A stretch of 64,000 bases of DNA, taken from NCBI GenBank assembly GCA_041658985.1, contig JBAZZC010000004.1:20221-84220 (forward strand), read 5' to 3'. This document shows, piece by piece, positions 6,992 through 64,000 of the stretch. This stretch comes from Minisyncoccota bacterium. GTDB taxonomy: Bacteria > Patescibacteriota > Minisyncoccia > Phycocordibacterales > DATDWN01. Numbering within the stretch: the first letter of the stretch is position 1; every line of letters begins with the position of its first letter. Position numbers and translations under genes: made by a program. Below the pieces are notes generated by a model that saw only the letters and a program-made list of their open reading frames with translations, made no database searches and was not told the origin of the DNA.

Positions 6992-7267
6992 ATGACCATT
7001 ATCCCTTTTCTTAATAAGGTTAGTGATTTAATTCTGAATCCTCTTATCCTACTTGCTTTTGGTTTGGCCTTTGTTTATTTCACCTATGGTGTAGTTAAAT
7101 TTCTAAGTCTTGATGCTGGGGATAAAAGCAGAAAAGAAGCTCAAGATGCAATACTGTGGGGGTTGGTTGGAATGGTAATTATGTTTTCTGTTTATGGAAT
7201 AATAAAATTTGTTTTGGCCAGTTTTGGCATAACAGCTCCTGACAATGCTATTATATTTCTGAGATAG
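6992..7267 (+). CDS. VirB2/TrbC-like pilin candidate (paralog 6)
   Basis: FVYFTYGVVKFLSLDAGDKSRKEAQDAILWGLVGMVIM. Confidence 0.5.
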   Translation: MTIIPFLNKVSDLILNPLILLAFGLAFVYFTYGVVKFLSLDAGDKSRKEAQDAILWGLVGMVIMFSVYGIIKFVLASFGITAPDNAIIFLR

Positions 7268-7281
7268 TCCTAAGAAAAGTT

Positions 7282-7317
7282 AAACCGCGTGCCCTCCTCC
7301 AGGGGGCGCGCGGTTTT
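7282..7317. terminator. bidirectional rho-independent terminator between the pilin array (+) and the GC-rich island genes (-)
   Basis: AAACCGCGTGCCCTCCTCCAGGGGGCGCGCGGTTTTG: GC-rich imperfect hairpin with flanking A/T runs on both sides. Confidence 0.7.
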
Positions 7318-7334
7318 GCGTACAATGTACAGTC

Positions 7335-7823
7335 TTACCTCGAGAAGGTCACGATGACCGGTCTCGATGTTCCAGATTGGATTTCTATCCACGGTTGTTC
7401 GGGGATTTCAACCGTCATTCCTGGGCCGTCAACGTATGGTCGGCCGACTGGGTCCCAGATGAGAATGGGTCCTTGTGGCTTCCCCTTCATTCCGGCCAGG
7501 TAGGGGACTCGGCAACTCCGGCCCACAATGGGGGCTGTGACGACGTAGGTCCCATCTATCTCTGGAGTACAGAGGTTTACGATTGTAGCCGGTCCGGTCG
7601 ACCAGCTCCAGCACCCCCTAACCAGGAACACCGTCGTCAGGATGCCAACGCCGACGAGTACCCAATTGAGCCATCCACTTCTTCTGGTTGTCGTCGTGGC
7701 CGTGGTACTGGGTGGTAGTGGTCCAAACGGCCTTGGGCTATGGTGTTGTCGTGACTTGAAGACCTTGACAACAACCACGAGAACCAGAAGGACCGCCAGA
7801 ATCACAACAAGGGTGATAAGCAC
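7335..7823 (-). CDS. membrane protein downstream of the SPFH gene, NfeD-like partner candidate
   Basis: Two TM helices plus a C-terminal beta-rich domain. The operon position after an SPFH gene suggests NfeD-like (inference). GC-rich. Confidence 0.35.
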   Translation of the reverse strand: MLITLVVILAVLLVLVVVVKVFKSRQHHSPRPFGPLPPSTTATTTTRRSGWLNWVLVGVGILTTVFLVRGCWSWSTGPATIVNLCTPEIDGTYVVTAPIVGRSCRVPYLAGMKGKPQGPILIWDPVGRPYVDGPGMTVEIPEQPWIEIQSGTSRPVIVTFSR

Positions 7824-7825
7824 GT

Positions 7826-8893
7826 TTACCCACCCTTCTTCCCGTCAGTGGGCAGAGGGAGCGTGACTGGCACCTGCCCACCACCCGTGACGTCTACTCG
7901 TGTAGTCAGTCCGGGCTGTGCTCGTGCCGCCAGGATGCGCGAGACTTGCTCTGCGGCGATGTTCGGGTTGACCCCCTGCTGCACCAACTCCGCAACCATT
8001 CGTGAGAACTGGGCGGCGTCTGCTTCCGCAAGTCGTATCCCAGCCTCTTGTCTGGCTGTGCTTGAGATGGTTAGGGCAGTGGCTTCGGCCGTTGCTTGAG
8101 CGATCTGTCCAGCACCCTCTAGCTGAGCCATCTTCTTGGCCTCGATGGCTTGACGGGTCTTCTCGTCAGCCGGGTCCCACCGTGAGATGGAGATTCCAGT
8201 GATTCTGGTTCCGACCTGCCTGACGAGTTCCTTGTTGAGTGGGCTGTCGGGGTCTTTCAACCCGTCCAGAATCCCTTGGACTTCTCCCTTGTCGATGTTG
8301 ATGAAGTCGTCGATGGTCAAGTCGTTAATGATGTCACCAACTGCTCCCTGAACGATTCCTCCTGCGTTTCCAAAGAAGTCTCCCTTCAGGCGAATAATCG
8401 GTGTTCCCGGCGTTACGACCACAGACTTGGTTCTGACTAGGACGTTGACCGACATGCCGTCCTTGAGCTCCACCTTCCACATGAGGTACGAACGGGGGAA
8501 GGTCTTTCGAAGGGTGTCCGTCCACTCCACGCCGAGATCGATGATCCACTTTTCGGCGGGAGCTTGATCATCCGGGTTTTCTTTTTCCCTGTGAATCGGA
8601 AACTTCAAGACAGACGAGATGCCAGGGATTCCTACCCACCACAAGCCGAGATGCTTGTTGAGGAAGGATTTCTCTTGGTTTCCGTCGACGAACAACCCAG
8701 AGTCGGTTTCTCCGTTGTCGTCGAGGTGTTCTCCACGCGCGTCGTGGATGATTTGTGCGAGGGACTCTCCCACCATCCTGAACTTAATGTTGTCCGTCTG
8801 GATACGGGTTAGCATACCCAGTTGGACGAGGAGAATGATCCCGACCACGGCAATTGCTAGGGTCAGGATCACAGACAGCAAAAAAGTAACCAC
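7826..8893 (-). CDS. SPFH/band-7 (stomatin/prohibitin/flotillin-like) domain membrane protein
   Basis: N-terminal TM, then an SPFH-like core (IINDLTIDDFINIDKGEVQG...) and an Ala/Gln-rich coiled-coil tail. Markedly GC-rich relative to its surroundings. Confidence 0.7.
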   Translation of the reverse strand: MVTFLLSVILTLAIAVVGIILLVQLGMLTRIQTDNIKFRMVGESLAQIIHDARGEHLDDNGETDSGLFVDGNQEKSFLNKHLGLWWVGIPGISSVLKFPIHREKENPDDQAPAEKWIIDLGVEWTDTLRKTFPRSYLMWKVELKDGMSVNVLVRTKSVVVTPGTPIIRLKGDFFGNAGGIVQGAVGDIINDLTIDDFINIDKGEVQGILDGLKDPDSPLNKELVRQVGTRITGISISRWDPADEKTRQAIEAKKMAQLEGAGQIAQATAEATALTISSTARQEAGIRLAEADAAQFSRMVAELVQQGVNPNIAAEQVSRILAARAQPGLTTRVDVTGGGQVPVTLPLPTDGKKGG

Positions 8894-9051
8894 TGTTCAC
8901 GCTCCTTATCGTCTTGTCTTCCAATCTAGAATTTCAAAGAACTCCCTCGGAACACCCGAAAGTAGTCCTTTTGGTCCTGAACGGATTTTATCATATAAAT
9001 ATGTAAAAGTCAATATAAAAACGGCCCAGTATGGAGTTGTTTTTGATGTTG

Positions 9052-9133
9052 TGAGTGCGAGAGGATTTGAACCTCCAAGAGTTACCTCATACGCTCCTGA
9101 AGCGTACGCGTATACCAATTCCGCCACGCACTC
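9052..9133 (-). tRNA. tRNA-Leu(CAG), type II with long variable arm
   Basis: Cloverleaf traced by hand. Acceptor GAGTGCG/CGCACTC, anticodon loop TTCAGGA, T-loop GGTTCAAATCC. Confidence 0.8.
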
Positions 9134-9290
9134 GATTTGTTGTTGTGGGTGAGGGGAGACTCGGTCACAACTCTCGTCTTTCATGAACTCAAGACGAGGT
9201 CGCGACCCCGACTCAGCTTCACTTCTGTCTTTCTCGTCTCCTACCAATTATTAATAAATCACCCCAGAAAGAAGTGATTTATTAATAATG

Positions 9291-9372
9291 TGGGTGAGGG
9301 GAGACTCGAACTCCCAAGCCTTACGGCACTAGTTCCTAAGACTAGCGTGTCTACCAATTGCACCACTCACCC
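9291..9372 (-). tRNA. tRNA-Leu(TAG), type II
   Basis: Acceptor GGGTGAG/CTCACCC, anticodon stem CTAGT with loop CTTAGGA, T-arm GGGAGTTCGAGTCTCCC. Confidence 0.8.
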
Positions 9373-9559
9373 AAAGAATACAAGATAACATGAATGCAGA
9401 ACTACGCCCAGTAGGGAATCGACCATTACATGGTCAGTACACCTTTTCTGTTTTTTGTTTCGCAGTCTCACAAAAAACTATCAAAGGTCTTCGATCCCTG
9501 ACGAAAGCCGTACCCACGGCTTTCTCTGGATGCAAAAAAATTATTTACATAATTTTTTG

Positions 9560-11751: not shown

Positions 11752-11884
11752 ATCCGCACACCAAATCTGTCATCGTTCTGGTTTATTGTACGGTTTTTGT
11801 GGTTATTTGAGGTTGGTAATAAAAACATAATTATAGATGAACATAACACAGAACAAAAACCAATGACAGAATTGGTGTGCGGAT
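11752..11884. mobile_element. family A miniature TIR element (ATCCGCACAC ends), between infB and the 11888 gene
   Basis: ATCCGCACACCAAATCTGTCAT at 11752 vs reverse complement of ATGACAGAATTGGTGTGCGGAT at 11863-11884 (22 bp, 1 mismatch). Confidence 0.55.
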
Positions 11885-12436: not shown

Positions 12437-13639
12437 ATGAAAAGAAAAAAAGATAAAAGAAGAATATTTTTAGATTATGCCTCCATTACACCCATTGATA
12501 AAAAGGTTTTGGCAAAAATGGAAAGTATTCAAAAAATGACCTTTGCAAATCCATCTGCTTTGTATAGTGAGGCAATTGTTGCAAAAAATTTAATTAAAGA
12601 GGCTAGACAAAAAATAGTCACGATTATTCATGCTCAAAAAGATGAAATTATTTTTACAAGTGGGGGAACCGAGTCAAACAACCTGGCACTTCTTGGTATT
12701 TTTGAAAGTGTTCAAAGGTCTGACCTTAAGAATTCCAAAAGTCAGATCTTTTTGGGTAAACCCCACATTATTACGACAAAAATTGAACATCCGGCAGTTT
12801 TAGAGGTTTGTAAGGAAATTGAACGGCGAGAGGGAGAAGTTACTTATTTGCCGGTATCTTCTGATGGTCTTGTTTCTATAAAAAACATTCGAGAATCAAT
12901 CAAAAAGAACACAGTTCTCATAAGCATTGGATATGCAAATAACGAAATAGGCACAATACAACCAATTCATGATATGGGTAGGGTGATAAAAGACTACAGA
13001 CAAAAAAATAATACTAAGCTTCCGTATTTCCATACTGACGCTTGTCAGGCGGGGTTGTATTTGTCTCTTGATGTATTAAAACTTGGGGTTGATTTAATGA
13101 CTTTAGATGGAATTAAAATGTATGGTCCAAGAAGCTCGGGTATTTTATATGTAAAATCTGGTTTAGAGTTGTCGCCGATTATTTTTGGCGGTGGACAAGA
13201 AGGGGGACTGCGAAGCGGAACAGAAAATGTTGGAGTTTGTGTTGGACTGTCAACCACGCTTGAAATTGCAGAAAAAATTAAAGAAAAAGAATCCAAACGG
13301 CTGATGGCACTTCGTGATTATGCAATTAAAAATCTTTTAAAGATTTTTCCAAATTCTACACTAAACGGGTCAAGAGAATATCGTCTACCAAACAATATAA
13401 ATATCTGTTTCCCTGGTTTGGATGCAGAATTTGCGGTTATATCACTTGATGTTTTAGGAATTTCCGCCTCATACTCATCATCTTGTAGGACTCTAAAAGA
13501 AGACTCGTCTTCTTATGTTGTTGAAAATTTAGGTAAAAAAGATTGTAGTCAGTCGAGTCTTCGATTTACTCTCGGAAGAGAAAGCAAAAAAAGTGATATT
13601 GATACTTTAGTCACTGTCCTAAGAAAAATTGTGGTATAA
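12437..13639 (+). CDS. cysteine desulfurase family protein (class V aminotransferase, NifS/IscS-like)
   Basis: SD AGGAG 4 nt upstream of the start. FTSGGTESNNLAL, HTDACQAGL, and a Gly-rich PLP region. Confidence 0.8.
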   Translation: MKRKKDKRRIFLDYASITPIDKKVLAKMESIQKMTFANPSALYSEAIVAKNLIKEARQKIVTIIHAQKDEIIFTSGGTESNNLALLGIFESVQRSDLKNSKSQIFLGKPHIITTKIEHPAVLEVCKEIERREGEVTYLPVSSDGLVSIKNIRESIKKNTVLISIGYANNEIGTIQPIHDMGRVIKDYRQKNNTKLPYFHTDACQAGLYLSLDVLKLGVDLMTLDGIKMYGPRSSGILYVKSGLELSPIIFGGGQEGGLRSGTENVGVCVGLSTTLEIAEKIKEKESKRLMALRDYAIKNLLKIFPNSTLNGSREYRLPNNINICFPGLDAEFAVISLDVLGISASYSSSCRTLKEDSSSYVVENLGKKDCSQSSLRFTLGRESKKSDIDTLVTVLRKIVV

Positions 13640-13642
13640 TAT

Positions 13643-13777
13643 ATCCGCACACTAAATTTAGTATCGTTGCCTAGTGTTTTATCTAGATATTATTTATTAG
13701 TTATGTAATCGAGATAATATTTAGTGACAAATATTTAAAAGGCAACAAAAACACAATACTAAAATTAGTGTGTGGAT
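13643..13777. mobile_element. family A miniature TIR element, between the cysteine desulfurase gene and 13780
   Basis: ATCCGCACACTAAATTTAGTAT vs reverse complement of ATACTAAAATTAGTGTGTGGAT (22 bp, 2-3 mismatches). The right end GTGTGTGGATAAATG abuts the start codon of 13780. Confidence 0.55.
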
Positions 13778-17410: not shown

Positions 17411-18991
17411 AATGATTTCTTGTGATAAAGTAATCTGGTTAATAGTATATGCGCCGGTCGGATAGCGGCTATTCCAGGGGACTGTAAATCCCCGGTCCAT
17501 AGGACATCGTTGGTTCGAGTCCAACCCGGCGCACCACGTAGGAAAAGTCAAAGAGTTTTGGTTCGCCTCGCTTCGCTCGGCGACTAATTTGTATTCAATT
17601 TTGGGGGTAAAAACGAATTCCCGATTTCGCAAAATATGGTTCGAGCCGATGTTTTTCAGAAATGTTGGCAATTCGGAAAGATTATTCTCTCCAACCAATT
17701 TCGCGGCTTGATTTAAGGACTTTACGAACTCACGAGCCGGTTCGAGCCAAGACAACCCTTTTTCCTCAAAGTCGGTTATTTTCTCTATTAAAGATATTTT
17801 CTGAGATAACAGACTTTGTTTTTTGGCGGCGTATTCCTCTGTGGATAAGGCGTCCGCTAAATAGATGTCTAACAATTTTTGGAGTTTTGCCTCAACCTGT
17901 GTTACTTGCTCTTTCAAAACGCTGATTTCACTTTGTGCGTCCTCTCTCGCTTTATCCTGTTCGCTATCCAACGCCGCCAAAACTTTCTCGGTGTCTTGGC
18001 TCGACAAAGAAACTTTTTGAAGATAAGAAGTGATTTGTTCGGTTAGTGCTTCTTCTCGGAGATAATGCTTTTCTTGGCAAGGGCCTTTCTTGTGAGTACA
18101 GCGATAATAGTTATGACCCTTTTGTCTTTCGGCAGTGATTGAACAATCGCACGAAGCGCATTTGAGAAGGCCAAGAAAAGCAAAATTATTTTTGTGAGAT
18201 TCCTGTACTTTGCCACGCTTGCTCATCACTTCTTGGCAAGTATCAAAAAGTTTCTTTGAAATTAACGGCTCGTGTTGTCCCTCAAAAATTTCCCCCTTCC
18301 ATTTCATTAGTCCAAGGTAAAAGACGTTTTGTAGATTTTTTTGAATGTTTGCGATAACAAGTGGTTTTCCGAGATTACCACGCAAATCGTGTTCCTTACA
18401 CCAATTTGCGAGAGAGTGAAGCGTAAATGCTCCGGTGGCGTACATTTCAAACAACCTCTTAACTTTCGGCGCTTTCTCGCTATCAATATCAATACCGCGA
18501 GTCTTTGGGTTATTGGTGTAGCCCACCGGAGCCCAGCCGGGCCAAACGCCGTTTCTGATTTTCTGTCGTAGTCCTCGCTTCACATTCTCTCGCAAATTAT
18601 CTACAAAATATTTTGATTGACCAAAAGCAATATTGAGCATGAATAATCCCTGTGGTGTAGGCTCAAACCAGAAGGTGGGAAATTTTAGAGAACGAATCAA
18701 ACCGCGATCTACAAAATGGATAATCTTTCCGCCGTCCACACTATTTCTTGCTAATCTATCGGGGTGCCAAGAAATAATCCCATCTGCTTTTCCTGATTCA
18801 AGAATTGCCAACATTTCTGCGAATTTAATTCGCCCGGGTTCTTTTGCGGTTTTGGCTTCCTGAAAGGAAGCGACAATTTCAAGTTTTTCTTTGGCGGCAT
18901 ACTCTTGCAACTCTACGAGTTGCGCTTCAATACTTAAAACCTGTCGGTCATCTTCTTCAGTAGATTTTCTTGCGTAAAGTATGTATTTCAT
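17375..18991 (-). CDS. large serine recombinase (resolvase/invertase catalytic domain + recombinase domain + zinc ribbon). The C-terminal ~95 codons of the ORF run through IR1 and the tRNA-Tyr antisense and may not be genuine.
   Basis: N-terminal [19 protein letters not shown] (serine recombinase catalytic Ser motif), a ...R...GR... region, and zinc-ribbon CASCDCS...YYRC. Start ATG at 18991. The 3' end of the ORF overlaps IR1-L (17531-17631) and the tRNA. Confidence 0.85.
17451..17536 (+). tRNA. tRNA-Tyr(GTA), type II (copy 1)
   Basis: Acceptor GCGCCGG/CCGGCGC, anticodon stem GGGGA with loop CTGTAAA, long variable arm, T-loop GGTTCGAGTCC, encoded CCA. Its last 6 nt begin IR1. Confidence 0.85.
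17531..17631. repeat. IR1-L: 101-bp perfect inverted repeat (partner 19035-19135), beginning inside the 3' end of tRNA-Tyr
   Basis: Compared base-by-base: 17531-17631 equals the reverse complement of 19035-19135 (101/101). Confidence 0.9.
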
Positions 18992-19007
18992 AAGTTTTAG
19001 AAATTAA

Positions 19008-19035
19008 GGATTAAAAAATTTTCTTCCCCCAAAAT
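19008..19035. repeat. IR3-L: 28-bp perfect inverted repeat (partner 19280-19307), located between the recombinase start codon and IR1-R
   Basis: GGATTAAAAAATTTTCTTCCCCCAAAAT vs reverse complement at 19280-19307. Confidence 0.85.
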
Positions 19036-19135
19036 GCGAAATCGGGAATTCGTTTTTACCCCCAAAATTGAATACAAATTAGTCGCCGAGCGAAGCGAGG
19101 CGAACCAAAACTCTTTGACTTTTCCTACGTGGTGC
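19035..19135. repeat. IR1-R: inverted partner of 17531-17631
   Basis: See IR1-L. Confidence 0.9.
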
Positions 19136-19227
19136 AGTATCCTTGAATTAGTCCGAACGCATTTCGCCGCCTGCGGCGGCGAGGAAGTCCCCCCGCAAAA
19201 ATTCGGAAAGGCGGCGGAGCCGCACCG
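19132..19227. repeat. IR2-L: 96-bp perfect inverted repeat (partner 20132-20227). Overlaps the end of IR1-R by 4 nt.
   Basis: 19132-19227 equals the reverse complement of 20132-20227. Confidence 0.9.
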
Positions 19228-19527
19228 ATCAAAACCGTAAAAGAACCCGGAGAAAAACATCGGCGCGAACCATATTTTAATTTTGGGGGAAGAAAATTTT
19301 TTAATCCATTCAGAACCCTCTAAAATGGCCCCAAATAAGGGCTTTTTTGATTGTTTCGATATGGCTTGACAGAAAGGTTTGGATATGCTATACTTAATGC
19401 AGTAAATTGAAGTAAGTTCTTTATCATTTTTGGTCAGCTTTCTTGCGACACAATAGCTTAGAAACCTTGTTTTTCTTAGTTGCTGTGTCGCAAGAATCCA
19501 ACAACCCACAACCCAAAGGAGACTGAC

Positions 19528-20004
19528 ATGATGACGACGCAACCGCGACTGACCAAGGGGCTGTTCGGGCACGAGTTTCGCTCTGCCAGCACCCTGTTCG
19601 GCATCCGGTGTGGACAGTGTCGCGGTCGCGACTTCGTTCACAACGGCGGCTGGTACAACAGGGACGGCGAGAAACTCGGCTGGGGCGATCTCGCACCGGC
19701 GGACTTCCTGAAGATCTCCAACGAGTTGGAGGATGGTGAGCTCTTCATCATTCTCTACGAGTCGGACTCTTTCTGGAACTTCGTCACCCGCCCGGGCATC
19801 ATCGGCAGCATGGCCGCCGTGAAGCCCGACGTGGAGGCGCCCGGCGTCGACTTCGTAGCGGAGAAATGCTGCTACATCGTCGCCAAGCACCGACTCTACT
19901 ACGTCGACCGGAACGGCTACTCGAAAGAGAAGACGTTCGATCGAGACGGGTTGCAGTTCACGGTGCTGACGCCCGAAGCCGCGAAGCAGCTCATCGCTTC
20001 GTAG
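19528..20004 (+). CDS. hypothetical GC-rich protein carried between the IR2 copies
   Basis: TTGACA-17-TATACT promoter at 19366-19394. 11-bp-stem hairpin in the leader at 19442-19494. SD AAGGAG 8 nt before ATGATG (MMTTQPRL...). No recognisable family. Confidence 0.45.
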   Translation: MMTTQPRLTKGLFGHEFRSASTLFGIRCGQCRGRDFVHNGGWYNRDGEKLGWGDLAPADFLKISNELEDGELFIILYESDSFWNFVTRPGIIGSMAAVKPDVEAPGVDFVAEKCCYIVAKHRLYYVDRNGYSKEKTFDRDGLQFTVLTPEAAKQLIAS

Positions 20005-20131
20005 CTCCGCCCGCCGCCAACCCAAACCAAGTTCGCCACCTCTTGATAAAAGGTGGCTTTCTTTTTGTCTGATTTTTTGATAAAATAAATTCATAATTGA
20101 ATGCCGCCAAAGAAAAACTTGAAATTGTCAG

Positions 20132-20227
20132 CGGTGCGGCTCCGCCGCCTTTCCGAATTTTTGCGGGGGGACTTCCTCGCCGCCGCAGGCGGCGAAATGC
20201 GTTCGGACTAATTCAAGGATACTGCAC
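20132..20227. repeat. IR2-R: inverted partner of 19132-19227. It is immediately preceded (20101-20129) by a 29-bp inverted copy of recombinase-gene codons 31-40 (18872-18900).
   Basis: Direct comparison; see findings. Confidence 0.9.
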
Positions 20228-20348
20228 AAATAACTCCTGCAAGGGAGTTTTTGTATTTTATAAGATTGCACTTGAGTTATATTTATGATATATAAGTAAA
20301 TAGAGTGACGAGTTTAGTAGTAACCAAGTCGTCAAGGGGAAATCACAT

Positions 20349-21620
20349 ATGTCAACAATCCACGAAGAGTTAAAGGCCCGGGGCTTTGTCCAGCAGGAAA
20401 CTGCACCGGTGCAGGTCTTTCATCCAACAACTCACGAGTTGCTGGAGACTTTGTCGCTGAAGAATCTACTCAACAATAGTAGGATTACCTACTATGTCGG
20501 TTTTGACCCGACAGCGGACAGTTTGCACATCGGCCATCTTTTGCCGATCATGGCCATGACTCATCTGCAGAGAGCCGGCCACACGCCGATCGCTATCATT
20601 GGTGGCGGGACCACTATGATTGGTGACCCGAGTGGTAAGACTGAGACAAGGCAAATGCTCTCGAAAGAGGTCATTGCCTCAAACGGACAACGGCTTTTGG
20701 CACAGCTGAAACACTACCTTGACTTCGGTCAGGGCAAGGGATTGTTCGTTAACAATGCTGAGTGGCTTTTGCCACTTAACTACATTGAATTTCTCCGCGA
20801 CATCGGGAAACACTTCCGTGTCAACGAGATGGTTCGTACAACGGCGTACGCAGAACGACTTGCACGTGAGGAAGGATTGTCCTTCATCGAGTTCAACTAC
20901 CAACTGCTTCAAGCGTACGACTTTCTCGTTCTGTACGAAAAGTACGGATGCACGGTGCAGATGGGGGGGGACGACCAGTGGAGTAACATCCTTGCCGGAA
21001 TTGACCTCATCCGGAAGGTCAAACAAGGAAACGCCCACGCCTTGACATTCCCGCTTCTTACCACGGCGAGTGGCAAGAAGATGGGAAAGACCGAATCGGG
21101 GGCCGTTTGGCTTGATTCGGCCAAGACCTCACCCTACGAGTACTACCAGTACTGGATTAACACCGAGGACGGAGATGTTGAAAAGTTCCTGAAACTCTTC
21201 ACCTTTCTGCCCTTGGAGAAAATCACGGAACTGTGTGCTCGTGGAGGTCAACACCTCCGTACCGCCAAAGAAGCCCTTGCCTTTGAGACGACGAAGATCA
21301 CCCATGGCGAGGTAGAGGCAATCAAGGCCCAGAATGTTTCAAGGGAGTTGTTCAGTGGTAAGGGGAGTGAAGCATCTCACCTTCCGAGCACGGCCATCTC
21401 CCAGACCGAAGTGGACAAACTCCGACTCGTTGAAGTTCTTGTTAGGGTGGGCTTAAGCTCTTCAAAGACCGAGGCGGGGAAGCTCATCACTAGTGGTGGG
21501 GTCTATGCCAATGGTGAGAGGGTAATCGACGCCAAAGTCATGCTGTCCGAACTTCTCGTGGACGGCACAGTTCTTTTGCGGAAGGGACAGAAAACCTTTC
21601 ACAAAGTAGTCGTTGGGTAA
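20349..21620 (+). CDS. tyrS: tyrosine--tRNA ligase
   Basis: Class I HIGH motif (DPTADSLHIGHLLPIMAM) and KMSKS-type KMGKT. C-terminal S4-like domain. GC-richer than surrounding AT-rich genes. Confidence 0.95.
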   Translation: MSTIHEELKARGFVQQETAPVQVFHPTTHELLETLSLKNLLNNSRITYYVGFDPTADSLHIGHLLPIMAMTHLQRAGHTPIAIIGGGTTMIGDPSGKTETRQMLSKEVIASNGQRLLAQLKHYLDFGQGKGLFVNNAEWLLPLNYIEFLRDIGKHFRVNEMVRTTAYAERLAREEGLSFIEFNYQLLQAYDFLVLYEKYGCTVQMGGDDQWSNILAGIDLIRKVKQGNAHALTFPLLTTASGKKMGKTESGAVWLDSAKTSPYEYYQYWINTEDGDVEKFLKLFTFLPLEKITELCARGGQHLRTAKEALAFETTKITHGEVEAIKAQNVSRELFSGKGSEASHLPSTAISQTEVDKLRLVEVLVRVGLSSSKTEAGKLITSGGVYANGERVIDAKVMLSELLVDGTVLLRKGQKTFHKVVVG

Positions 21621-21626
21621 CGAAGT

Positions 21627-21712
21627 GGGTAGGTGCCCGAGCGGTCAAAGGGGACTGTCTGTAAAACAGTTGGCCTAGGCCTACAGAGGTTCAAATCCTC
21701 TCCTACCCACCA
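21627..21712 (+). tRNA. tRNA-Tyr(GTA), type II (copy 2), 6 nt after the tyrS stop
   Basis: Acceptor GGGTAGG/CCTACCC, anticodon stem ACTGT with loop CTGTAAA, long variable arm GGCCTAGGCC, T-loop GGTTCAAATCC, encoded CCA. Confidence 0.85.
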
Positions 21713-21750
21713 ACTTCCAAAGACTACTAACGAAGTAAGTCTCGAGGACG

Positions 21751-21795
21751 GGAGGACAGAATCATCGCGCGAGCGATGGGGATGTCCTCCTTTTT
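21751..21795 (+). terminator. rho-independent terminator after tRNA-Tyr copy 2
   Basis: GGAGGACA ... TGTCCTCC stem followed by TTTTT. Confidence 0.6.
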
Positions 21796-21908
21796 AGTAA
21801 AAATATTTAATACACCTTATTTATATATGATTGTTAGATGTTATAATCTTTCTGTATATTAATAGTTCAACAATCTCTTAGATATTATCAAAACAAAAGA
21901 GAATTACT

Positions 21909-22517
21909 ATGAAAAAGAAAATGTTTATTCTTGACATTGCTACCTTTGGACATGAAGCGGCTCTTATGTTTATACAAAGACAAGGATGGTTATTGAAAGA
22001 TGTCGAGATTGTTTTTTGTGGGTCACACGGGAGTCTACTTGAACGTTTTGTCACAGAACCATTCTCCTATGCAACTGTACCACTCCGAAACTCTTCCGCT
22101 GGTGAGTATACGGAGGTAACAATTCCTCTTGCAAAATTTCGAGGGGAGGGACATAAACTACTAGAACGAGATCAATTTGATCTCCCAATCAATCTTTTTC
22201 TTCTAGTTTCTCCTAGTGTTAATCAAGTCGATGAACTTGAATGTGTTATGTCACATGAGAAAGCGCTCAAAGAGTGTGGTCAATATCTTGATTCTATCGG
22301 CATTACACAGGATAAGCGCTCAGAGGTTAAGTCAACCGGCGAGTCTGCAAGACTTGTGTCTGAACTCGGCCTTGGTGCATTAGTGGGGGCTGTTGCACCA
22401 AAGATAGCCACCAAGGTTTATAATCTCAAAGTTTTAGCTGAAAACATTCAAGACGACCCGAACAACAAGACCATATTTGTACTTCTCCAGAACCAATTGA
22501 CTATGAAACTAAAATAG
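21909..22517 (+). CDS. prephenate dehydratase (PDT) domain protein, without ACT domain
   Basis: SHEKALKECGQYL (PDT sHpQAlaQC signature) and GALVGAVAPKIATKVYNLKVLAENIQDDPNNKTIFVLL (AAIas...yGL.iL...IqD..nN.TRF). Confidence 0.65.
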   Translation: MKKKMFILDIATFGHEAALMFIQRQGWLLKDVEIVFCGSHGSLLERFVTEPFSYATVPLRNSSAGEYTEVTIPLAKFRGEGHKLLERDQFDLPINLFLLVSPSVNQVDELECVMSHEKALKECGQYLDSIGITQDKRSEVKSTGESARLVSELGLGALVGAVAPKIATKVYNLKVLAENIQDDPNNKTIFVLLQNQLTMKLK

Positions 22518-22572
22518 AATAAGCTCTAAATAGAGCCGAAACCCTCGGCCAAGAACCAGACAGGAGTGTATT

Positions 22573-23136
22573 ATGAAACTGGCGGTACTGTTAGCTGGTC
22601 TACCTGGGTCGGGTAAGACAACGATCTGTCGGCACATGGCTGAAATGCCCAAGGTGTGTCATGTTGATGTTGACCACTATAAGAGGCACAGAGCTGATCC
22701 AAAGAAAGTGACAAAAGAAGTGGACTCGCCGGAACTCCGACTGCTCTACTGTCGGGATGCTCTGAACGAGGCCTTCTGTCACTTTGATGCTGGGGCATCG
22801 GCTGTTGTGATGGATGAAGTATATCCCTACCACTCAGTTCGTGCTCAATTGGAAGCGCTCTGTGCGGAAAGGCAAGTGCAAGTGTTGTGGGTTGAGGTAC
22901 GGTCCTTGTGTGGTACGGCGGTGAAACGTCTTTCTACACCAAGACCAGGACACCTCCTCACACCAGAGTGTGCCGCGGAGATTCACCGCATGTGTGCGGC
23001 TATCTTCGAGGCGTTTCCTGCCGGTTGTCAGAATCACGTCATTATCAACAACGAAGATGGTGCCGACATCAATCGGTTGGTGACTGGTCTCATGGGGGTT
23101 GTCAACAAAAACCCTCAAGTCATCAGTTGTGGCTAG
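22573..23136 (+). CDS. P-loop NTPase/kinase (AAA_33 / zeta-toxin-like small kinase), GC-rich
   Basis: Walker A GLPGSGKTT near the N-terminus, ~185 aa. SD CAGGAG upstream. Confidence 0.55.
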   Translation: MKLAVLLAGLPGSGKTTICRHMAEMPKVCHVDVDHYKRHRADPKKVTKEVDSPELRLLYCRDALNEAFCHFDAGASAVVMDEVYPYHSVRAQLEALCAERQVQVLWVEVRSLCGTAVKRLSTPRPGHLLTPECAAEIHRMCAAIFEAFPAGCQNHVIINNEDGADINRLVTGLMGVVNKNPQVISCG

Positions 23137-35515: not shown

Positions 35516-37831
35516 TTACTTATTAATTTTTCCCGCCTCATCGGCGGGTCGCCGAGGAGGCGACTTCTTAAACCCACGTTTCTTTTTTTCTTGAGCAAAA
35601 ATTTCTAATGCACGGGGGAGTTCTATCGTATAAACATCATCTTCTTTTAACGAGCGAAAATCTTTTTGGTGGACAATATATGGTCCAAACATTCCGATAT
35701 TAGCTGTTATCTTTTCTCCAGTATCTGGATGAACACCTAATACTCGGGGAAGTGTAAGATAGGTCAAAGCATCTTGGAGGGTTACGGTAGAGAGATCTTT
35801 TCCTTTTGGAATCGAAGCCATTTTAGGTTTAACGGCTTTAGTTGAACCTTTTCTCCCAGTACCAGAGCGAAGCTCGGTACGGGACTTCGCTTTAGCTCTT
35901 TCTCCCACTTGAACATATGGTCCGTATTTTCCAATCAAAATGTAAATAGGTAATCCGGTTTCTGGGTCTGTTCCGATTGGTTCTTCCTTTTTTATTTCCT
36001 GTCCATCCATAGTCAGTGCTCCCTGACATTCTGGATATTTAGCACAAGACAAGAATTTTCCTCCACGAGAAAGTTTAATTATCATAGGTCCCTGACAGAC
36101 AGGACATTTCATTTTTGCGTCTGCATCACCAAGATTATTTACTTTATCTATTTTGTCTTTGCTTTTTACATCAGCTAAGAATGGTTTATAAAAAGTCTTT
36201 AGGGTTTTTACATATTCTTCTTTTCCGTTGGCGATGAGGTCAAGCTTGTCTTCCATTTCAGCAGTGAAACTATCACTTATATAGTTAGCAAAATTGGCTT
36301 CAAGAAAACTTGAAACCACATCACCAGTATCGGTTGGTACTAGGGCTTTATTTATTTTGTCTACATAACCCCTGTCTTCCAGAGTTCCAATAATAGAAGC
36401 ATATGTACTAGGTCTTCCGATTCCTCTCTTTTCTAATTCTTTAACAAGCCCTGCCTCAGAATATCTTCCTGGAGGTTCGGTTTGTTTTTCTTCGGTTGAA
36501 ACTTTCTTGAGCCCCAATTTCTCACCGACAGAGACTTTTGGTAATTCAACATCATCTCCTCGAGAGGCGGGGTCACCCAAAAGCCACCCAGGAAATTTTA
36601 TTTGTGAACCAGTTATAGAAAAATCTGGCATATCACTACCTTTAACGTTTGTGGTGATTTTTGTGCGTAATGTCATCGCATCCTTCATTTGTGATGATAC
36701 TGTTCGTCTCCAAATTAATTCATAAAGTTTTTTTTGTTCGTCATTTATTCCAGCATGCTCAACATTAAAATGGGTAGGGCGAATAGCTTCGTGGGCTTCC
36801 TGGGCATTTTTGCTTTTTGTCGCAAATTTTCTAATTTGTAAAAATTCTTTTCCGTATTTACTTTCAACAACTTGTGCTATTTGAGCTATAGCCACAGCGC
36901 TTAAATTTGTTGAATCTGTACGCATGTACGTAATATATCCTGCTTCATATAGTTTTTGGGCAATACCCATAGTTCTTGAAGGTGAAAATCCAAGGCGAGA
37001 ACTAGCGGTTTGTTGAAGTGTTGAGGTAATAAAGGGTGCTCTGGGAGATTTCTTTACGTCCATTTCTTTAACATCTTTTACGAACCATTTATTTTCTTTT
37101 CCACCTTTTTCGGCAGTTTCAACAATCTGCTCAACCTCTTTTTTGTCTGTAGGTTCAACCTCGCAGACCACCGTAAATTGACCAGACCCGCCTCCTTGGC
37201 GGGTCGCCGAAGAGGCGACATCTGCCGAGATAACCCAAAAAGCATGAGATTTAAAAGCACGAATTTCCCTTTCTCTCTCCATTATGATTCGGAGAGCGGG
37301 GGACTGAACTCTGCCTGCAGAAAGTCCATATCGAATTTTTTTCCAGATAAGTCCGGATAAATCATATCCAACAAGTCGGTCCAATACACGTCGCGCTTCC
37401 TGTGCTTGTCTCAAATTCTGATCTATGTCTCTGGGATGTTCTAATGCTTCCCGTATTGCTTCTTCTGTAATTTCAACATATGAAACCCTCTTCACTTTCG
37501 ACTTTCGACTTTCGACTTTCGACTTGCCGAAATCATTACCTATGATTTCGGCAATGTGCCAAGCGATAGCTTCACCCTCACGGTCGGGGTCGGTAGCAAG
37601 TAGTATTTCATCTGCCTTTTTTGAAAGAGATTTAATTTCATTAACCACCTTTTCTTTTCCTTTTGATATTTCGTAATGGGGAATAAAACCACCATCTATA
37701 TCAATGGCTTTTTTGTTCGATTTTGGTAAATCACGAATATGACCAACAGAAGCAACAACGGTGTACTCACCATCAAGATATTTTGAAATTGTCTTTGCTT
37801 TTGCTGGAGACTCTACAATAAGTAACTTCAT
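35516..37831 (-). CDS. topA: DNA topoisomerase I
   Basis: Toprim MKLLIVESPAKAKTI, catalytic-Tyr region, C-terminal zinc ribbons (CPVCQGPM...). Contains two in-frame GC-rich palindromic insertions and a 7-bp x4 tandem repeat. Confidence 0.95.
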   Translation of the reverse strand: MKLLIVESPAKAKTISKYLDGEYTVVASVGHIRDLPKSNKKAIDIDGGFIPHYEISKGKEKVVNEIKSLSKKADEILLATDPDREGEAIAWHIAEIIGNDFGKSKVESRKSKVKRVSYVEITEEAIREALEHPRDIDQNLRQAQEARRVLDRLVGYDLSGLIWKKIRYGLSAGRVQSPALRIIMEREREIRAFKSHAFWVISADVASSATRQGGGSGQFTVVCEVEPTDKKEVEQIVETAEKGGKENKWFVKDVKEMDVKKSPRAPFITSTLQQTASSRLGFSPSRTMGIAQKLYEAGYITYMRTDSTNLSAVAIAQIAQVVESKYGKEFLQIRKFATKSKNAQEAHEAIRPTHFNVEHAGINDEQKKLYELIWRRTVSSQMKDAMTLRTKITTNVKGSDMPDFSITGSQIKFPGWLLGDPASRGDDVELPKVSVGEKLGLKKVSTEEKQTEPPGRYSEAGLVKELEKRGIGRPSTYASIIGTLEDRGYVDKINKALVPTDTGDVVSSFLEANFANYISDSFTAEMEDKLDLIANGKEEYVKTLKTFYKPFLADVKSKDKIDKVNNLGDADAKMKCPVCQGPMIIKLSRGGKFLSCAKYPECQGALTMDGQEIKKEEPIGTDPETGLPIYILIGKYGPYVQVGERAKAKSRTELRSGTGRKGSTKAVKPKMASIPKGKDLSTVTLQDALTYLTLPRVLGVHPDTGEKITANIGMFGPYIVHQKDFRSLKEDDVYTIELPRALEIFAQEKKKRGFKKSPPRRPADEAGKINK

Positions 37832-59502: not shown

Positions 59503-59734
59503 ATCCGCACACTAACTCTCATTTTGGGTTAGTGTATTTTTTATTATTAATTTTAATCTACTTCTAACTCGACTCATATATTCTAACACTTTTTTCTTTC
59601 CTTATATATCTAACCCTTTTGTTATGTTTTATAACTTTCTAATCTTGGGGGATTGAACTTATGTCGCTTATTTTAACTTTAATTTTCTATTATGTGGGTA
59701 TAAAACATAACGAAATGAGAGTTAGTGTGCGGAT
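59503..59734. mobile_element. family A miniature TIR element (non-autonomous, ~230 bp)
   Basis: ATCCGCACACTAACTCTCATTT at 59503-59524. Reverse complement AAATGAGAGTTAGTGTGCGGAT at 59713-59734. No ORF inside. Confidence 0.6.
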
Positions 59735-59794
59735 GAATTTTAACACAAAATTTTCAAGCAAGTTGACAAGATAAAAAAATGTTAAAATAGAGGA

Positions 59795-60964
59795 ATGACT
59801 CCTTTAGCTGTAAAAATTAGACCTACAAATCTCGATGATTTTGTTGGCCAGAAACATCTAGTGGGCGAAGGAAAGCCCCTACGTGTTGCCATAGAAAAGA
59901 AACATCTCTTTTCCTTTATCTTATGGGGTCCTCCTGGAGTGGGTAAAACCACTTTGGCTAGAATTTATGCCAAAGCTATTAATGCCGATTTTTACGAACT
60001 TTCGGCTGTTTCTGCCGGGAAAGATGATATAAGAAAGATATTGGTTTCAGAGAAAGAAAAAACAAAAGTTTTGTTTCTTGATGAGATTCATCGTTTTAAT
60101 AAATCACAACAGGATTTTCTTTTACCCTTTGTTGAGTCCGGTGAGATGCTTCTTGTCGGTGCTACAACAGAAAATCCGAGTTTTGAGGTTATTTCGCCTC
60201 TCCTTTCACGTTGTAGGATTTTTGTTTTAAATGATTTTTCTCCCGAAGAAATGGGGGAGATTCTTGATCGAGTACAAACCGCCTCTTCGGCGGTCCGCCG
60301 AGGAGGCGGAAAAGAAGCCAAAATAAAAATAGATAAAGAGTCAAAAGGGTGGCTTATTAGAATGGCCAACGGTGATGCTAGGCAAGCCATATCGCTTTTG
60401 GAAGCCACCATTGGTTTGTATGGAAAAATTAGTGTTGAAAATTTGAAACAAGCCCTACAATCAAAATTTTTAAGGTACGATAAGGTTGGTGATGAGCATT
60501 ACAATACTATAAGCGCCTTTATTAAAAGTATGCGTGCTAGTCAGCCTGATGCTGCGCTCTATTATATGTGCAGAATGATTGATGCTGGTGAGGACCCAAA
60601 ATTTATTGCTCGTCGTATGGTGGTTTTTGCCAGTGAGGATATTGGCCTTGCTCAGCCAACGGCTCTTGTTGTAGCTAATGCTGTTTTTCGGGCCGTGGAA
60701 ACTATAGGATTGCCTGAATGTGCCGAGAATTTGGCACACGGGGTTGTCTATTTAGCGCAGGCCAAAAAAGACCGTTCAGCTTACAATGCTTACTTGGAGG
60801 CCATGGAAGATGTAAAAAAATATGGTAACCTCCTTATACCTTTAAAAATAAGAAACGCCCCAACTAAGCTCATGAAGGATTTGGATTACGGAAAAGGCTA
60901 TGAGCAATATACCAAAGAGGATTTATTACCAGAAAAGTTAAAGAACAAAAAATACTTAAAATAA
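59795..60964 (+). CDS. rarA: replication-associated recombination protein A (MgsA/RarA AAA+ ATPase)
   Basis: LWGPPGVGKTTLARIYA, sensor motifs, C-terminal MgsA-specific helical domain. Contains the in-frame GC-rich palindrome at 60279-60309. Confidence 0.9.
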   Translation: MTPLAVKIRPTNLDDFVGQKHLVGEGKPLRVAIEKKHLFSFILWGPPGVGKTTLARIYAKAINADFYELSAVSAGKDDIRKILVSEKEKTKVLFLDEIHRFNKSQQDFLLPFVESGEMLLVGATTENPSFEVISPLLSRCRIFVLNDFSPEEMGEILDRVQTASSAVRRGGGKEAKIKIDKESKGWLIRMANGDARQAISLLEATIGLYGKISVENLKQALQSKFLRYDKVGDEHYNTISAFIKSMRASQPDAALYYMCRMIDAGEDPKFIARRMVVFASEDIGLAQPTALVVANAVFRAVETIGLPECAENLAHGVVYLAQAKKDRSAYNAYLEAMEDVKKYGNLLIPLKIRNAPTKLMKDLDYGKGYEQYTKEDLLPEKLKNKKYLK

Positions 60965-61026
60965 TTTATATTGTTGACAAAAAGGCTGTAGCTGATAATC
61001 TAATTTTGGAGCGGGAAGGAGTTTAC

Positions 61027-61275
61027 ATGCCAAAAACAAGTATGAAGGACGACAAGCCTTTCCACGAGTCCATTGTGGATGCGATTGGAGAAGCATCAAG
61101 CACTGACCTTCACTGTCTCGGTCGTCTGATCAAGGCGACAGCCATCCCAAAGGGTCATGACCAGATTCTTACAGCGTGGGAGGGACATGCCAGGCCAATC
61201 CTGGGTTCTATGGACCTCGGGGTCCCGGAAGCGCTTCGTCTTAAGAAGCGACGAGCCGAACGTGGCGACGGCTAA
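61027..61275 (+). CDS. GC-rich small hypothetical protein (~82 aa)
   Basis: SD GGAAGGAG before ATG at 61027. Terminator hairpin at 61288-61325. Confidence 0.4.
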   Translation: MPKTSMKDDKPFHESIVDAIGEASSTDLHCLGRLIKATAIPKGHDQILTAWEGHARPILGSMDLGVPEALRLKKRRAERGDG

Positions 61276-61351
61276 AGGCCTGTGGGAAAGCCCGCGATAT
61301 CATCGCGCTCCCACGGGCTTTTTCACACTCAAAAACTTTATGTTATAATTC

Positions 61352-61653
61352 ATCCGCACACTAACTCTCATTTCGTTATGTTTTATGTATATGTGATCAA
61401 AAGTAAAAAGTTTGATAATCTATACATTGGTTCTACTAATAGTCTTAGAGAAAGACTCATAAAACATAACAAAGGACTAGTTAAATCAACAAAAAAGAAT
61501 AAACCATATGTGCTAATATATTATGAAGCGTATAAGATAGAATCAGATGCGCGAAGGAGGGAAAAAATGTTAAAATATAGAGGTCAAGCAAGAAATCAAT
61601 TAAAATTAAGAATAAAAGACACACTAGCGCAAAATGAGAGTTAGTGTGCGGAT
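61352..61653. mobile_element. family A TIR element (22-bp TIR ATCCGCACACTAACTCTCATTT) carrying a GIY-YIG nuclease gene
   Basis: Left TIR 61352-61373. Right TIR 61632-61653 is an exact reverse complement. The GIY-YIG stop codon lies inside the right TIR. Confidence 0.65.
61378..61644 (+). CDS. GIY-YIG nuclease family protein (URI domain, ~88 aa)
   Basis: MFYVYVIKSKKFDNLYIGSTNSLRERLIKHN gives the GIY...YIG motifs, plus a conserved Arg and Glu downstream. Confidence 0.8.
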   Translation: MFYVYVIKSKKFDNLYIGSTNSLRERLIKHNKGLVKSTKKNKPYVLIYYEAYKIESDARRREKMLKYRGQARNQLKLRIKDTLAQNES

Positions 61654-62689: not shown

Positions 62690-62695
62690 AAAGAC

Positions 62696-62716
62696 AGGAG
62701 GGCCCTAAGGCCCCCC
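62696..62716 (-). terminator. rho-independent terminator (minus strand)
   Basis: Minus strand reads GGGGGCCTTAGGGCCC then TCCTGTCTTTTTA. Confidence 0.5.
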
Positions 62717-62734
62717 GTGAAGAAGTTGCGTGGG

Positions 62735-62839
62735 TCAGAACCTGACCCGTCCGTCCCACGTAAGTGGGCGGTTGTGCCGAACGACAGCGGCGACGGTAAT
62801 TCCGAGAATGATAGCACCGAAGAACCAGAATCGCTTCAC
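62735..62839 (-). CDS. tiny hydrophobic peptide (34 aa), GC-rich. Not in the ORF track.
   Basis: SD GAGAGGAGAAG before a GTG start. Single TM-like peptide VKRFWFFGAIILGITVAAVV... Confidence 0.25.
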   Translation of the reverse strand: MKRFWFFGAIILGITVAAVVRHNRPLTWDGRVRF

Positions 62840-63154
62840 GGCTTCTCCTCTCTCTGGTCAACCCGCACGGCTGACACAGTCTATTGTTAGTAAAACACAC
62901 ACAAGATAAATCTGTCAAAAAAAATGGGGATTAATCCGAACACCAAATTTGGCATCGTTGCATCGTGTTTTAATATGTGTAAGTTGTGTTGCTATGTGAT
63001 AGGACATGAGGTTATATAAAAATGTTTAACAAGCAACAAAAACACAATGCCAAAATTGGTGTGCGGATAAACGACGAACCGGCGGACTTGCGTCTGCCGG
63101 TGTGAAGGGGATTAACTCCCTTCATGTTTCTAGCTCGACATGTGCCGAGCCGTA

Positions 63155-63361
63155 CTAAGGGAACTTGAAGTCTGACTCGTCCGCCCACTTTCGGGTGGTG
63201 GGTGGAGTCTCGACCGCCGGCGGGTGTTCCTTCTGATATCTGGTCGCCTCGTTGATGAAGTGGCGAACAGCCACAATCCATCCGAGTGCGACCAGAATCA
63301 TAAACACGAAACCGATGACTTGGTTCCACGGAATCTCGTGAACAAATCTAATTGCGAGCAT
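63155..63361 (-). CDS. GC-rich small membrane protein (~68 aa)
   Basis: SD GAGGAAGG 7 nt before the ATG at 63361 (MLAIRFVHEIPW...). One TM helix. The ORF-track entry extends further upstream. Confidence 0.4.
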   Translation of the reverse strand: MLAIRFVHEIPWNQVIGFVFMILVALGWIVAVRHFINEATRYQKEHPPAVETPPTTRKWADESDFKFP

Positions 63362-63423
63362 GGGCACCTTCCTCTCTTCAGTAAGTAAAACACAACACGA
63401 TTTTATTTGCAAAATTTTATACG

Positions 63424-63454
63424 AAAAAGACCGGCAGGTTTTGAGGCCTGCCGG
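63424..63454 (-). terminator. rho-independent terminator (minus strand)
   Basis: Minus strand reads CCGGCAGGCCTCAAAACCTGCCGG + TCTTTTTCG. Confidence 0.6.
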
Positions 63455-63502
63455 CCGGGAGGATGACCCTCCCTACCAGATTACAGTCTGGTCACTGGTA
63501 CG

Positions 63503-63892
63503 CTACTGAACCGGAGCTGTCCACCCGCGCCACGGATTGGTCCAGAAGGACCACATGGCACGGAATGGGTAGGTGATGACCCGAACGGTCATTTCCCCGA
63601 TTCCCATCGGTGCGGTTGGCGAGGTGGCCGACGGAGCCGGCGTGGTTGTGGGTGGCGCTGGATTCGGCTGCAAGACAACGGTAATCTTGTTGGCCAGCAA
63701 CAAACTGATCCTGTTGATGCACCCATCCAGATACCGGGCCTCGTGCCCGCCGTTGCTCGCCCAGACCATCTGACCCTTCTCCAGCCAAACCACTTCGAAA
63801 GTGTGTCGGCTCCTGATCTCGTTTACGTACCACCCAGCCTCTACCAGCGGTTCACGGTGGACCTGGAGGAGCTTGGCATCTCGGGAGGACAT
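63503..63892 (-). CDS. GC-rich hypothetical protein (129 aa). A further minus-strand gene appears to run off the window end.
   Basis: SD GGGGGAAAG before the ATG at 63892. Pro/Thr-rich linker. No family recognised. Confidence 0.4.
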   Translation of the reverse strand: MSSRDAKLLQVHREPLVEAGWYVNEIRSRHTFEVVWLEKGQMVWASNGGHEARYLDGCINRISLLLANKITVVLQPNPAPPTTTPAPSATSPTAPMGIGEMTVRVITYPFRAMWSFWTNPWRGWTAPVQ

Positions 63893-64000
63893 CTTTCCCC
63901 CGAGTGGGGGGAAGCGCTGGATGTTGATGTAGTCTGGAACGGTCCAGACAACCCCGTTGATGACGCATCGCTCATAGCCGTAGTATGGTTCTTTGGCATC

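Follow-up and report, generated by a model that had tools for sequence, protein, structure and literature searches.

An 88-aa GIY-YIG gene of the Slx1-like/UPF0213 type (61378-61644, + strand, stop codon included) lies near the end of the 64-kb window, the term used here for the whole stretch of DNA that was analysed. The gene is carried by a 302-bp element (61352-61653, + strand) that is bounded on both sides by perfect 22-bp inverted repeats (IRs). The left IR (61352-61373, + strand) is made up of an outer core, ATCCGCACAC, and a variable inner part, and the right IR (61632-61653, + strand) overlaps the last codons of the ORF (QNES*). The coding part starts 4 nt past the left IR and extends from 61378 to 61641, such that the TAG stop codon (61642-61644) falls inside the right IR. 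The window contains the 22-mer ATCCGCACACTAACTCTCATTT at exactly four places, which form two inverted pairs (59503-59524/59713-59734 and 61352-61373/61632-61653), a pattern for which the chance expectation is 0.01. An earlier note on this DNA had described both the perfect terminal repeats and the enclosed 88-aa ORF ending within the right repeat, and both descriptions were confirmed. The GIY-YIG domain is encoded by the sole ORF of the element; no DDE, serine, tyrosine or HUH transposase is encoded.

A promoter-like site judged to be strong (TTCACA-16-TGnTATAAT; 61322-61349, + strand) lies outside the element and ends 2 nt short of the left IR. This site belongs to an AI-2E transporter gene whose GTG start is placed at 61658 because the homologues of the transporter are 343 aa in length. 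The host promoter sequence is also found at the empty site of a relative (L173), which, together with the GTG at 61658, places the ORF element between the host promoter and the start codon of its gene. Since the element landed at this position, the GIY-YIG gene is probably read from the AI-2E promoter.

The history of this site was followed in contigs of relatives from one groundwater sample (ERZ909576), of which L173 encodes an AI-2E transporter that is 96% identical and L170 an IF-2 that is 93% identical. The site upstream of the AI-2E gene reads TGTTATAATT-TATTTAT-GTGGACAAAG in L173 and TGTTATAATT-C[302-bp element]AAAT-GTGGATAAAG in the window. Both alignment and blastn indicate that the 302-bp element is missing from L173 and that the flanks are conserved to the IR ends, and the AI-2E site of a 78% outgroup is likewise without the element. 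Similarly, a second element of the window (62934-63068) is missing from L173, again with conserved flanks. The spacer between the DUF4446 gene and infB is 21-24 nt in L170 and in L171/L172 (77% outgroups), and the window has a 133-nt element (11752-11884) at this position with flanks that are conserved up to the IR. Neither a GIY-YIG gene nor the core motif is present in L170 and L173. The IR-bounded 302-bp unit is a discrete piece of inserted, formerly mobile DNA, two or more of the short copies are likewise insertions specific to this lineage, and these filled and empty sites demonstrate the mobility of the IR-bounded units. The earlier note had weighed its view against that of a housekeeping YhbQ-type gene kept in synteny in relatives; the gene is missing at this site in both the 96% relative and the 78% outgroup.

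Additional copies of two kinds are present in the window. The first is a 232-bp copy (59503-59734, - strand) with the same perfect IRs, which is complementary to the ORF copy over 55 nt at 95% and over 95 nt at 83% and retains a residual tblastn match to residues 61-88 of the protein. The absence of an intact ORF in this copy agrees with the earlier note, and the copy is a decayed, internally deleted remnant of the ORF element. The second kind consists of short gene-less members at 11752-11884 (133 nt, + strand; empty site in L170 and L171/L172), 13643-13777 (135 nt, + strand) and 62934-63068 (135 nt, + strand; empty in L173). The 13643-13777 member fills the gap from the stop codon of a cysteine-desulfurase-like gene to the ATG of the next gene. 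All three have the outer core ATCCG[C/A]ACAC in common, and their inner IR differs from copy to copy and is complementary inside each copy. Our IR finder returned five family members in the 64-kb window versus two unrelated matches in 502,747 bp of control sequence, which consisted of 80 metagenome loci anchored on the neighbouring MgsA gene at 70-81% identity. These MgsA-anchored loci contain no GIY gene, no IR element and no conserved neighbours; they were rejected as empty sites because their neighbours are not conserved, and were kept as a negative control.

The ORF element and the short elements have only the IR and about 10-15 subterminal nt per side in common. Derivation of the approximately 135-nt copies from the ORF element by deletion was considered and rejected, as alignment of the interiors gave z below 2 against shuffles almost throughout; with interiors unrelated to the ORF, these copies are therefore not simple deletion derivatives. 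Consequently, the proposal of the earlier note that the ORF-less copies are MITE derivatives stands for the 232-bp copy only, and the 133-135-nt copies are members of a separately conserved short family that shares its termini with the ORF element. It was also observed that 17 of the 20 nt just beyond the left IR are identical between the two longer copies (59735-59754 and 61332-61351; AAAAYTTTRTGTTAWAATTC), and that 61332-61351 is host promoter DNA which is present in the empty site as well. This shared flank reflects either an extended -10-like target preference (cf. 13630-13642 and L004) or co-duplication of the flank.

The 88-aa protein matches Pfam PF01541 with E=3.7e-14 and 53.2 bits (gathering score 22.6) over model positions 1-74 of 78, and contains no domain besides GIY-YIG, leaving a catalytic core without a DNA-binding extension. 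The protein has 596 database homologues, and one in a Candidatus Paceibacterota metagenome-assembled genome is 100% identical. A profile built from 32 homologues matches the UPF0213 structures 1zg2 (2.7e-8) and 1ywl (3.3e-6) in the PDB, with weak matches to SLX1 (7wme/6seh) and no other PDB matches, and searches of defence-system and NCBIfam libraries gave no match above cutoff. The GIY-YIG superfamily is defined by its two namesake motifs (GIY and YIG) together with a central Arg and a C-terminal Glu (PMC1564403). The residues Y5 (..YVY..), Y16-I-G18, R26 and E62 are invariant among the 32 homologues and presumably serve the corresponding catalytic roles. Dunin-Horkawicz et al. (2006) describe the bacterial Slx1-like cluster, to which the protein belongs, as the domain in its minimal, free-standing form, with mostly vertical inheritance and a presumed role in repair, and SLX1 as a structure-specific nuclease (PMC1564403). 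GIY-YIG is also a classic homing-endonuclease fold; homing endonucleases bear extra DNA-binding modules, and their own DNA is not recognised (PMC1564403). The 88-aa protein is best described as a minimal predicted nuclease of the Slx1/UPF0213 type, closer by profile matching to UPF0213 and SLX1 than to the UvrC or I-TevI lineage. The dN/dS of the GIY-YIG ORF is 0.04-0.12 in nine comparisons, indicating purifying selection. Furthermore, the C-terminal ...DTLAQNES is conserved among homologues of 60-90% identity, and two N-terminally extended homologues carry an in-frame upstream HPHTN; the ...DTLAQNES* C-terminus and the upstream HPHTN are the IRs read as protein.

The family was surveyed across Patescibacteria in 80 loci, one genome per species, together with 8 contigs that encode 88-90% identical proteins. 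Flanking repeats, which the earlier note had suggested looking for around homologues elsewhere, bracket the GIY-YIG ORF in at least 56 of 90 evaluable cases; the arms are 14-26 nt in length, the bracketed units measure 284-322 bp (median 300), and about a third of the homologues have no IR at the finder threshold used. The 88-90% identical homologues are themselves found in unrelated gene neighbourhoods. Across the 88 loci the outer IR core is CC[CG]CACAC[CT], with variants such as GCCCCTCACC, and the inner part is variable and covarying. In the paralogues L056a/b and L017a/b, nucleotide similarity extends exactly from outer IR end to outer IR end with unrelated flanks, and the IR arms are identical despite an ORF dS of about 1.0-1.3. 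Identical IRs at this divergence, combined with the low dN/dS, indicate that both the protein and the IRs are under selection. The inner IR varies between copies and stays complementary within a copy, which argues that the pairing itself matters.

Depending on the filter, 36-43 gene-less IR elements were found in the surveyed loci, with lengths that group at 72-73 nt and about 127-142 nt. The gene-less elements carry the genome-specific core of the local ORF element (for example in the window, L004, L023, L026 and L033). The approximately 135-nt class has a left subterminal motif, CAT-CGTTGC, and a right subterminal motif, GCAAC-AAAAACAC-AATG, that forms an asymmetric bulge. The AT-rich centre of this class lacks conservation and has no significant similarity to the ORF. 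The 72-73-nt class (L019 1036-1107; L026, L052, L065, L066) shares its core with the longer class, and the 72-nt members fold into a stem of 24 bp that is topped by two small hairpins (z = -11.5). The same IR position repeatedly shows an A.G mismatch (CCGAACAC facing GTGTGCGG) in distant genomes, with left arms at 62934-62955 in the window and at L004 2011, L052 3262, L065 2488 and L066 2621, and also in L006 and L071. This mismatch may represent a functional asymmetry that marks one end. The earlier note had stated that GIY-YIG mini-proteins flanked by terminal repeats are not a described IS family, and no prior account of such a GIY-YIG/IR family was found in the literature searched, the coverage of which was incomplete. 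This family of tiny elements and gene-less partners is widespread in Patescibacteria/CPR and apparently undescribed.

The nature of the pairing constraint has also been probed. The IR pairs are 97% Watson-Crick, and the mismatches on the ORF strand comprise 7 G.T versus 12 A.C. With respect to the neighbouring genes, short copies were found in either orientation, and single-stranded DNA folds of the elements are far more stable than those of shuffles (z from -4.9 to -11.5). With Rfam 15, only tRNAs reach the gathering score in the window, and a search of the elements in E-value mode returned nothing but hairpin models of plant miRNAs, all of them far below threshold. The lack of a G.T excess and the occurrence of both orientations indicate that pairing is constrained at the level of DNA and not of a sense RNA, and the constraint is thus one on DNA complementarity plus a short conserved core. 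An RNA structure was rejected on the basis of these observations, namely no bias of G.U over A.C, both orientations and no Rfam match.

The junctions of the elements differ from those of classical insertion sequences. No fixed-length target-site duplication was found in the family, and none is consistent in the AT-rich subfamily of the window. At the junctions of the three insertions a few target bases were replaced, not duplicated, and about 16 nt of spacer are missing at infB. A look-alike of the right element end TGCGGATAA, namely TGTGGATA(A/G), is present in two of the three empty sites, and the element at 62934 has the target 9-mer on both sides, imperfectly. A gene end of a tRNA is overlapped by 3-7 nt in 13 of 101 elements, with about one expected by chance on a rough estimate; the tRNAs concerned are Gly, His, Ile, Ala, Lys, Ser and Phe, at the 5' or 3' end. 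Direct repeats of the tRNA terminus concerned, 7-12 bp in length, surround these elements, and such variable repeats are found only there. The outermost IR bases of the elements at tRNA ends are identical or complementary to the acceptor strand. Direct repeats of at least 8 bp flank 19% of elements compared to 2.4% in a shuffled control. The sequence TTTAC..TTTAC, present at many loci, was rejected as a target duplication, as it is the rpsG stop codon region of a shared locus. Insertion just after a -10 box (9% versus 5% in the control) and just before a start codon (26% versus 16%) was likewise rejected as a family-wide rule; the promoter/start-codon placement holds in the window genome and L004. 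The junction pattern fits two models, one in which breaks are repaired or templates switched by microhomology to the ends and another in which an intermediate with joined ends recombines with a look-alike site. The transposable unit envisaged in the earlier note is mobile, but unlike a classical TIR transposon it has no fixed duplication, its inner IR covaries, and one clade is without bracketing IRs.

In that clade, which comprises nine species (L019, L028, L052, L058, L060, L065, L066, L067 and L076), the GIY-YIG gene is located between rpsG and fusA of the str operon, on the opposite strand and outside any IR pair, at about 3001-3255 in most loci. One to three complete IR elements accompany the gene on its flanks, variable in number and in size (72, 127 or about 140 nt). 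EF-G is only about 70% identical across the nine species, and the shared location suggests long vertical persistence or domestication. This arrangement is comparable to that of a RAYT gene flanked by REPINs.

The window contains repeats and islands other than this family. An IS200/RAYT-like Y1 transposase gene (2232-2795, - strand; Pfam Y1_Tnp PF01797, E=1.1e-12) is accompanied by hairpins of its own, ATGTCAA..TTGACAT downstream (2154-2176) and a perfect 24+24-nt palindrome upstream (2837-2888). In the relatives L174/L175, a 31%-identical Y1_Tnp gene with CAAGGTGGAACCTTG-type hairpin flanks lies beside the AI-2E gene. A second repeat family consists of a GC-rich 37-nt double hairpin (CCGCCTCTTCGGCGG + CCGCCGAGGAGGCGG) at 60278-60314, 35532-35568 and 37187-37223. 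One copy of the 37-nt repeat lies in the MgsA gene, where it adds about 11 aa (TASSAVRRGGG) in frame; this insertion is missing in four relatives (76-81% identity) and is reminiscent of the intragenic palindromic elements of Rickettsia. The genome has a GC content of about 35%, and GC-rich islands (47-54%) occur at 61006-61340, 62690-62930, 7000-9500, 19000-23000 and 63000-64000. The first of these includes an 89-aa ORF (61006-61275) without a Pfam match that, together with a terminator-like hairpin, is conserved in L173 (85% nt identity), indicating that this island is older than the element insertions. Finally, long inverted repeats (17531-17631/19035-19135, 101 nt, 100%; 19132-19234/20125-20227, 103 nt, 97%) are found in or beside the GC-rich island bounded by duplicated tRNA-Tyr genes at 17451-17536 and 21627-21712, and the segment between these genes may be integrated or invertible.

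The IR-bounded family shares features with several known systems. Similar to REPIN-RAYT and IS200/IS605 systems, there is one small nuclease gene and many short, hairpin-forming, non-coding copies of genome-specific sequence, the repeats flank or enclose the gene, one clade is vertical at a fixed locus, no fixed target duplication is made, and targets are like element ends. In contrast to these systems, the enzyme is not a HUH tyrosine transposase but of the GIY-YIG (Slx1-like) type, for which neither a covalent intermediate nor strand-transfer chemistry is known. Moreover, the repeats form a single long-range IR around the gene and not a local hairpin at each end, and the Y1_Tnp gene of the window is associated with other flanking hairpins, not with the same repeats. 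Bacterial MITEs with terminal IRs are exemplified by the Correia elements of Neisseria and by ERIC/IRU. Like these, the short elements are intergenic, measure 70-140 nt, have many copies and end in IRs of about 22-26 nt; they are often beside promoters or start codons, and are present or absent between relatives. The differences are that a coding partner is identifiable here and is not a DDE transposase, that the inner IR covaries, and that there is no constant TA-type or fixed-length duplication. As in classical IS elements and MITEs, terminal IRs delimit a duplicated unit that is present or absent between conserved flanks, but the fixed target duplication and the DDE, serine, tyrosine or HUH transposase of a classical IS are absent.

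The seg genes of phage T4 are free-standing GIY-YIG homing endonuclease genes, of which segB is located in a tRNA gene cluster. The elements described here likewise place a GIY-YIG gene in the intergenic space between conserved genes, often beside tRNA genes, with a patchy distribution among relatives. Unlike in the seg type, a bare 88-aa core, bounded by IRs, duplicates within the genome and has gene-less partners, and the fusion to sequence-specific DNA-binding modules that characterises homing endonuclease genes is absent. By sequence and by minimal size the protein belongs to the Slx1-like/UPF0213 (YhbQ-type) family, from which it differs in that the gene is within an IR-bounded unit with insertion polymorphism, the family being mostly vertical (PMC1564403).

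It is proposed that these are foldback-like mobile elements, analogous to REPIN-RAYT, that use a structure-specific GIY-YIG nuclease, and this is the explanation we consider probable. The association of the gene with the elements points to mobilisation by the GIY-YIG protein; this role is inferred from the coupling of gene and IRs, the shared genome-specific cores, the selection on both and the structure-specific activity of Slx1-type enzymes. First, the IRs would fold back to form a stem-loop in single-stranded DNA, or a cruciform. Next, the 88-aa nuclease, like Slx1, would recognise the folded structure plus the conserved core and cut at the base of the structure, and it would also cut genomic sites that resemble an element end. 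Finally, host repair or replication would copy or join the element into the break, possibly primed by microhomology. Such a cut-and-repair mechanism would account for the lack of a fixed-length duplication, the end-like targets and the variable 7-12-bp repeats at tRNA ends. A stronger version is offered only tentatively: this may be the first prokaryotic transposable-element family with a minimal (84-88 aa) Slx1-like GIY-YIG nuclease as its sole enzyme, which would recognise its own foldback or cruciform plus CC[CG]CACAC, cut the ends and look-alike sites (tRNA acceptor ends and G-rich sites near starts) for host repair to paste a copy, and mobilise the 72-nt and about 135-nt partners in trans. 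To our knowledge, no GIY-YIG enzyme carries out strand transfer. The uneven junctions, the want of a consistent duplication in the AT-rich subfamily of the window, the nine syntenic loci without bracketing IRs, the interiors of the approximately 135-nt elements that are unrelated to the ORF, the third or so of homologues without an IR and the Y1 transposase encoded in the window, which might in principle act on hairpin elements, all count against this explanation.

Alternatively, the short repeats could be primary and spread by other means, with the GIY-YIG gene a homing-endonuclease parasite inside one copy that cleaves gene-less copies or similar sequences and does not mobilise them. The fold of the protein is that expected of such a parasite, and the restriction of common sequence to the IR and about 10-15 subterminal nt looks as if the ORF had replaced the interior of a short element. 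Subterminal motifs of its own are conserved in the short family, the interior of which is unrelated to the ORF, and the resemblance of targets to element ends is likewise expected from homing. The empty site in L173, however, is a plain spacer between promoter and start codon that holds no short element, and the insertion at 61352 was therefore not a homing event into a gene-less copy. Furthermore, the 88-aa protein is without the DNA-binding extension through which homing endonucleases engage long targets, both ends of the ORF lie in or beside the IRs, unlike those of a self-contained insert, and nine species have the gene outside the short elements, flanked by them. Homing is consequently regarded as an unlikely origin of the family.

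A passenger or domesticated nuclease is another explanation, wherein the elements are moved by a different enzyme, such as the Y1/RAYT-like protein encoded at 2232-2795, or are immobile now, and the GIY-YIG protein is cargo or a host factor that processes hairpins or cruciforms. A Y1_Tnp protein is indeed encoded in the window, and hairpin repeats are known substrates of RAYT and IS200 enzymes. The rpsG-fusA gene, kept across species in which EF-G is about 70% identical, also has the vertical appearance of a domesticated gene. The hairpins that flank the Y1_Tnp gene (ATGTCAAG...CTTGACAT), however, are unrelated to the IR family, and Y1_Tnp was rejected as the mobilising enzyme on this basis. 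In addition, the association of IR and ORF is positionally conserved at the at least 56 bracketed loci and the IR overlaps the coding sequence; together with the IR-to-IR duplication of ORF units, these findings indicate that the gene is part of the moving unit, and a mere passenger or domesticated nuclease seems quite improbable. The least credible explanation, a housekeeping YhbQ/Slx1-like repair gene with a 5'/3' mRNA stem for stability, processing or translational control and with structured leaders or small RNAs as the gene-less copies, would suit the promoter-like site 2 nt from the left IR, the several copies that end 0-10 nt short of a start codon and the vertical inheritance formerly attributed to bacterial Slx1-like repair enzymes (PMC1564403), but is essentially excluded by the empty sites, since the gene is missing from the syntenic site in relatives and the promoter there is that of the host gene, and it also conflicts with the evidence given above on stem mismatches, orientation and Rfam and with a promoter and start proximity that is not clearly above control.

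The IR-bounded elements lend themselves to experiment, as an 88-aa protein, 22-bp ends and both filled and empty sites are in hand, making for an easy test system. A small nuclease that is specific for structure plus sequence is also a possible tool. In CPR genomes, the repeats affect the annotation of gene starts and promoters as well as assembly. Genomes of about 1 Mb evidently tolerate active intergenic elements, at promoter-start gaps and at tRNA gene ends. If the proposed mechanism is correct, a nuclease class without a known role in IR elements would join the enzymes behind prokaryotic mobile DNA, in the stronger version as a new catalytic class alongside the DDE, HUH, serine and tyrosine enzymes, and the many stand-alone GIY-YIG (UPF0213/Slx1-like) proteins of the Candidate Phyla Radiation, uncharacterised as a group, would gain a concrete role.
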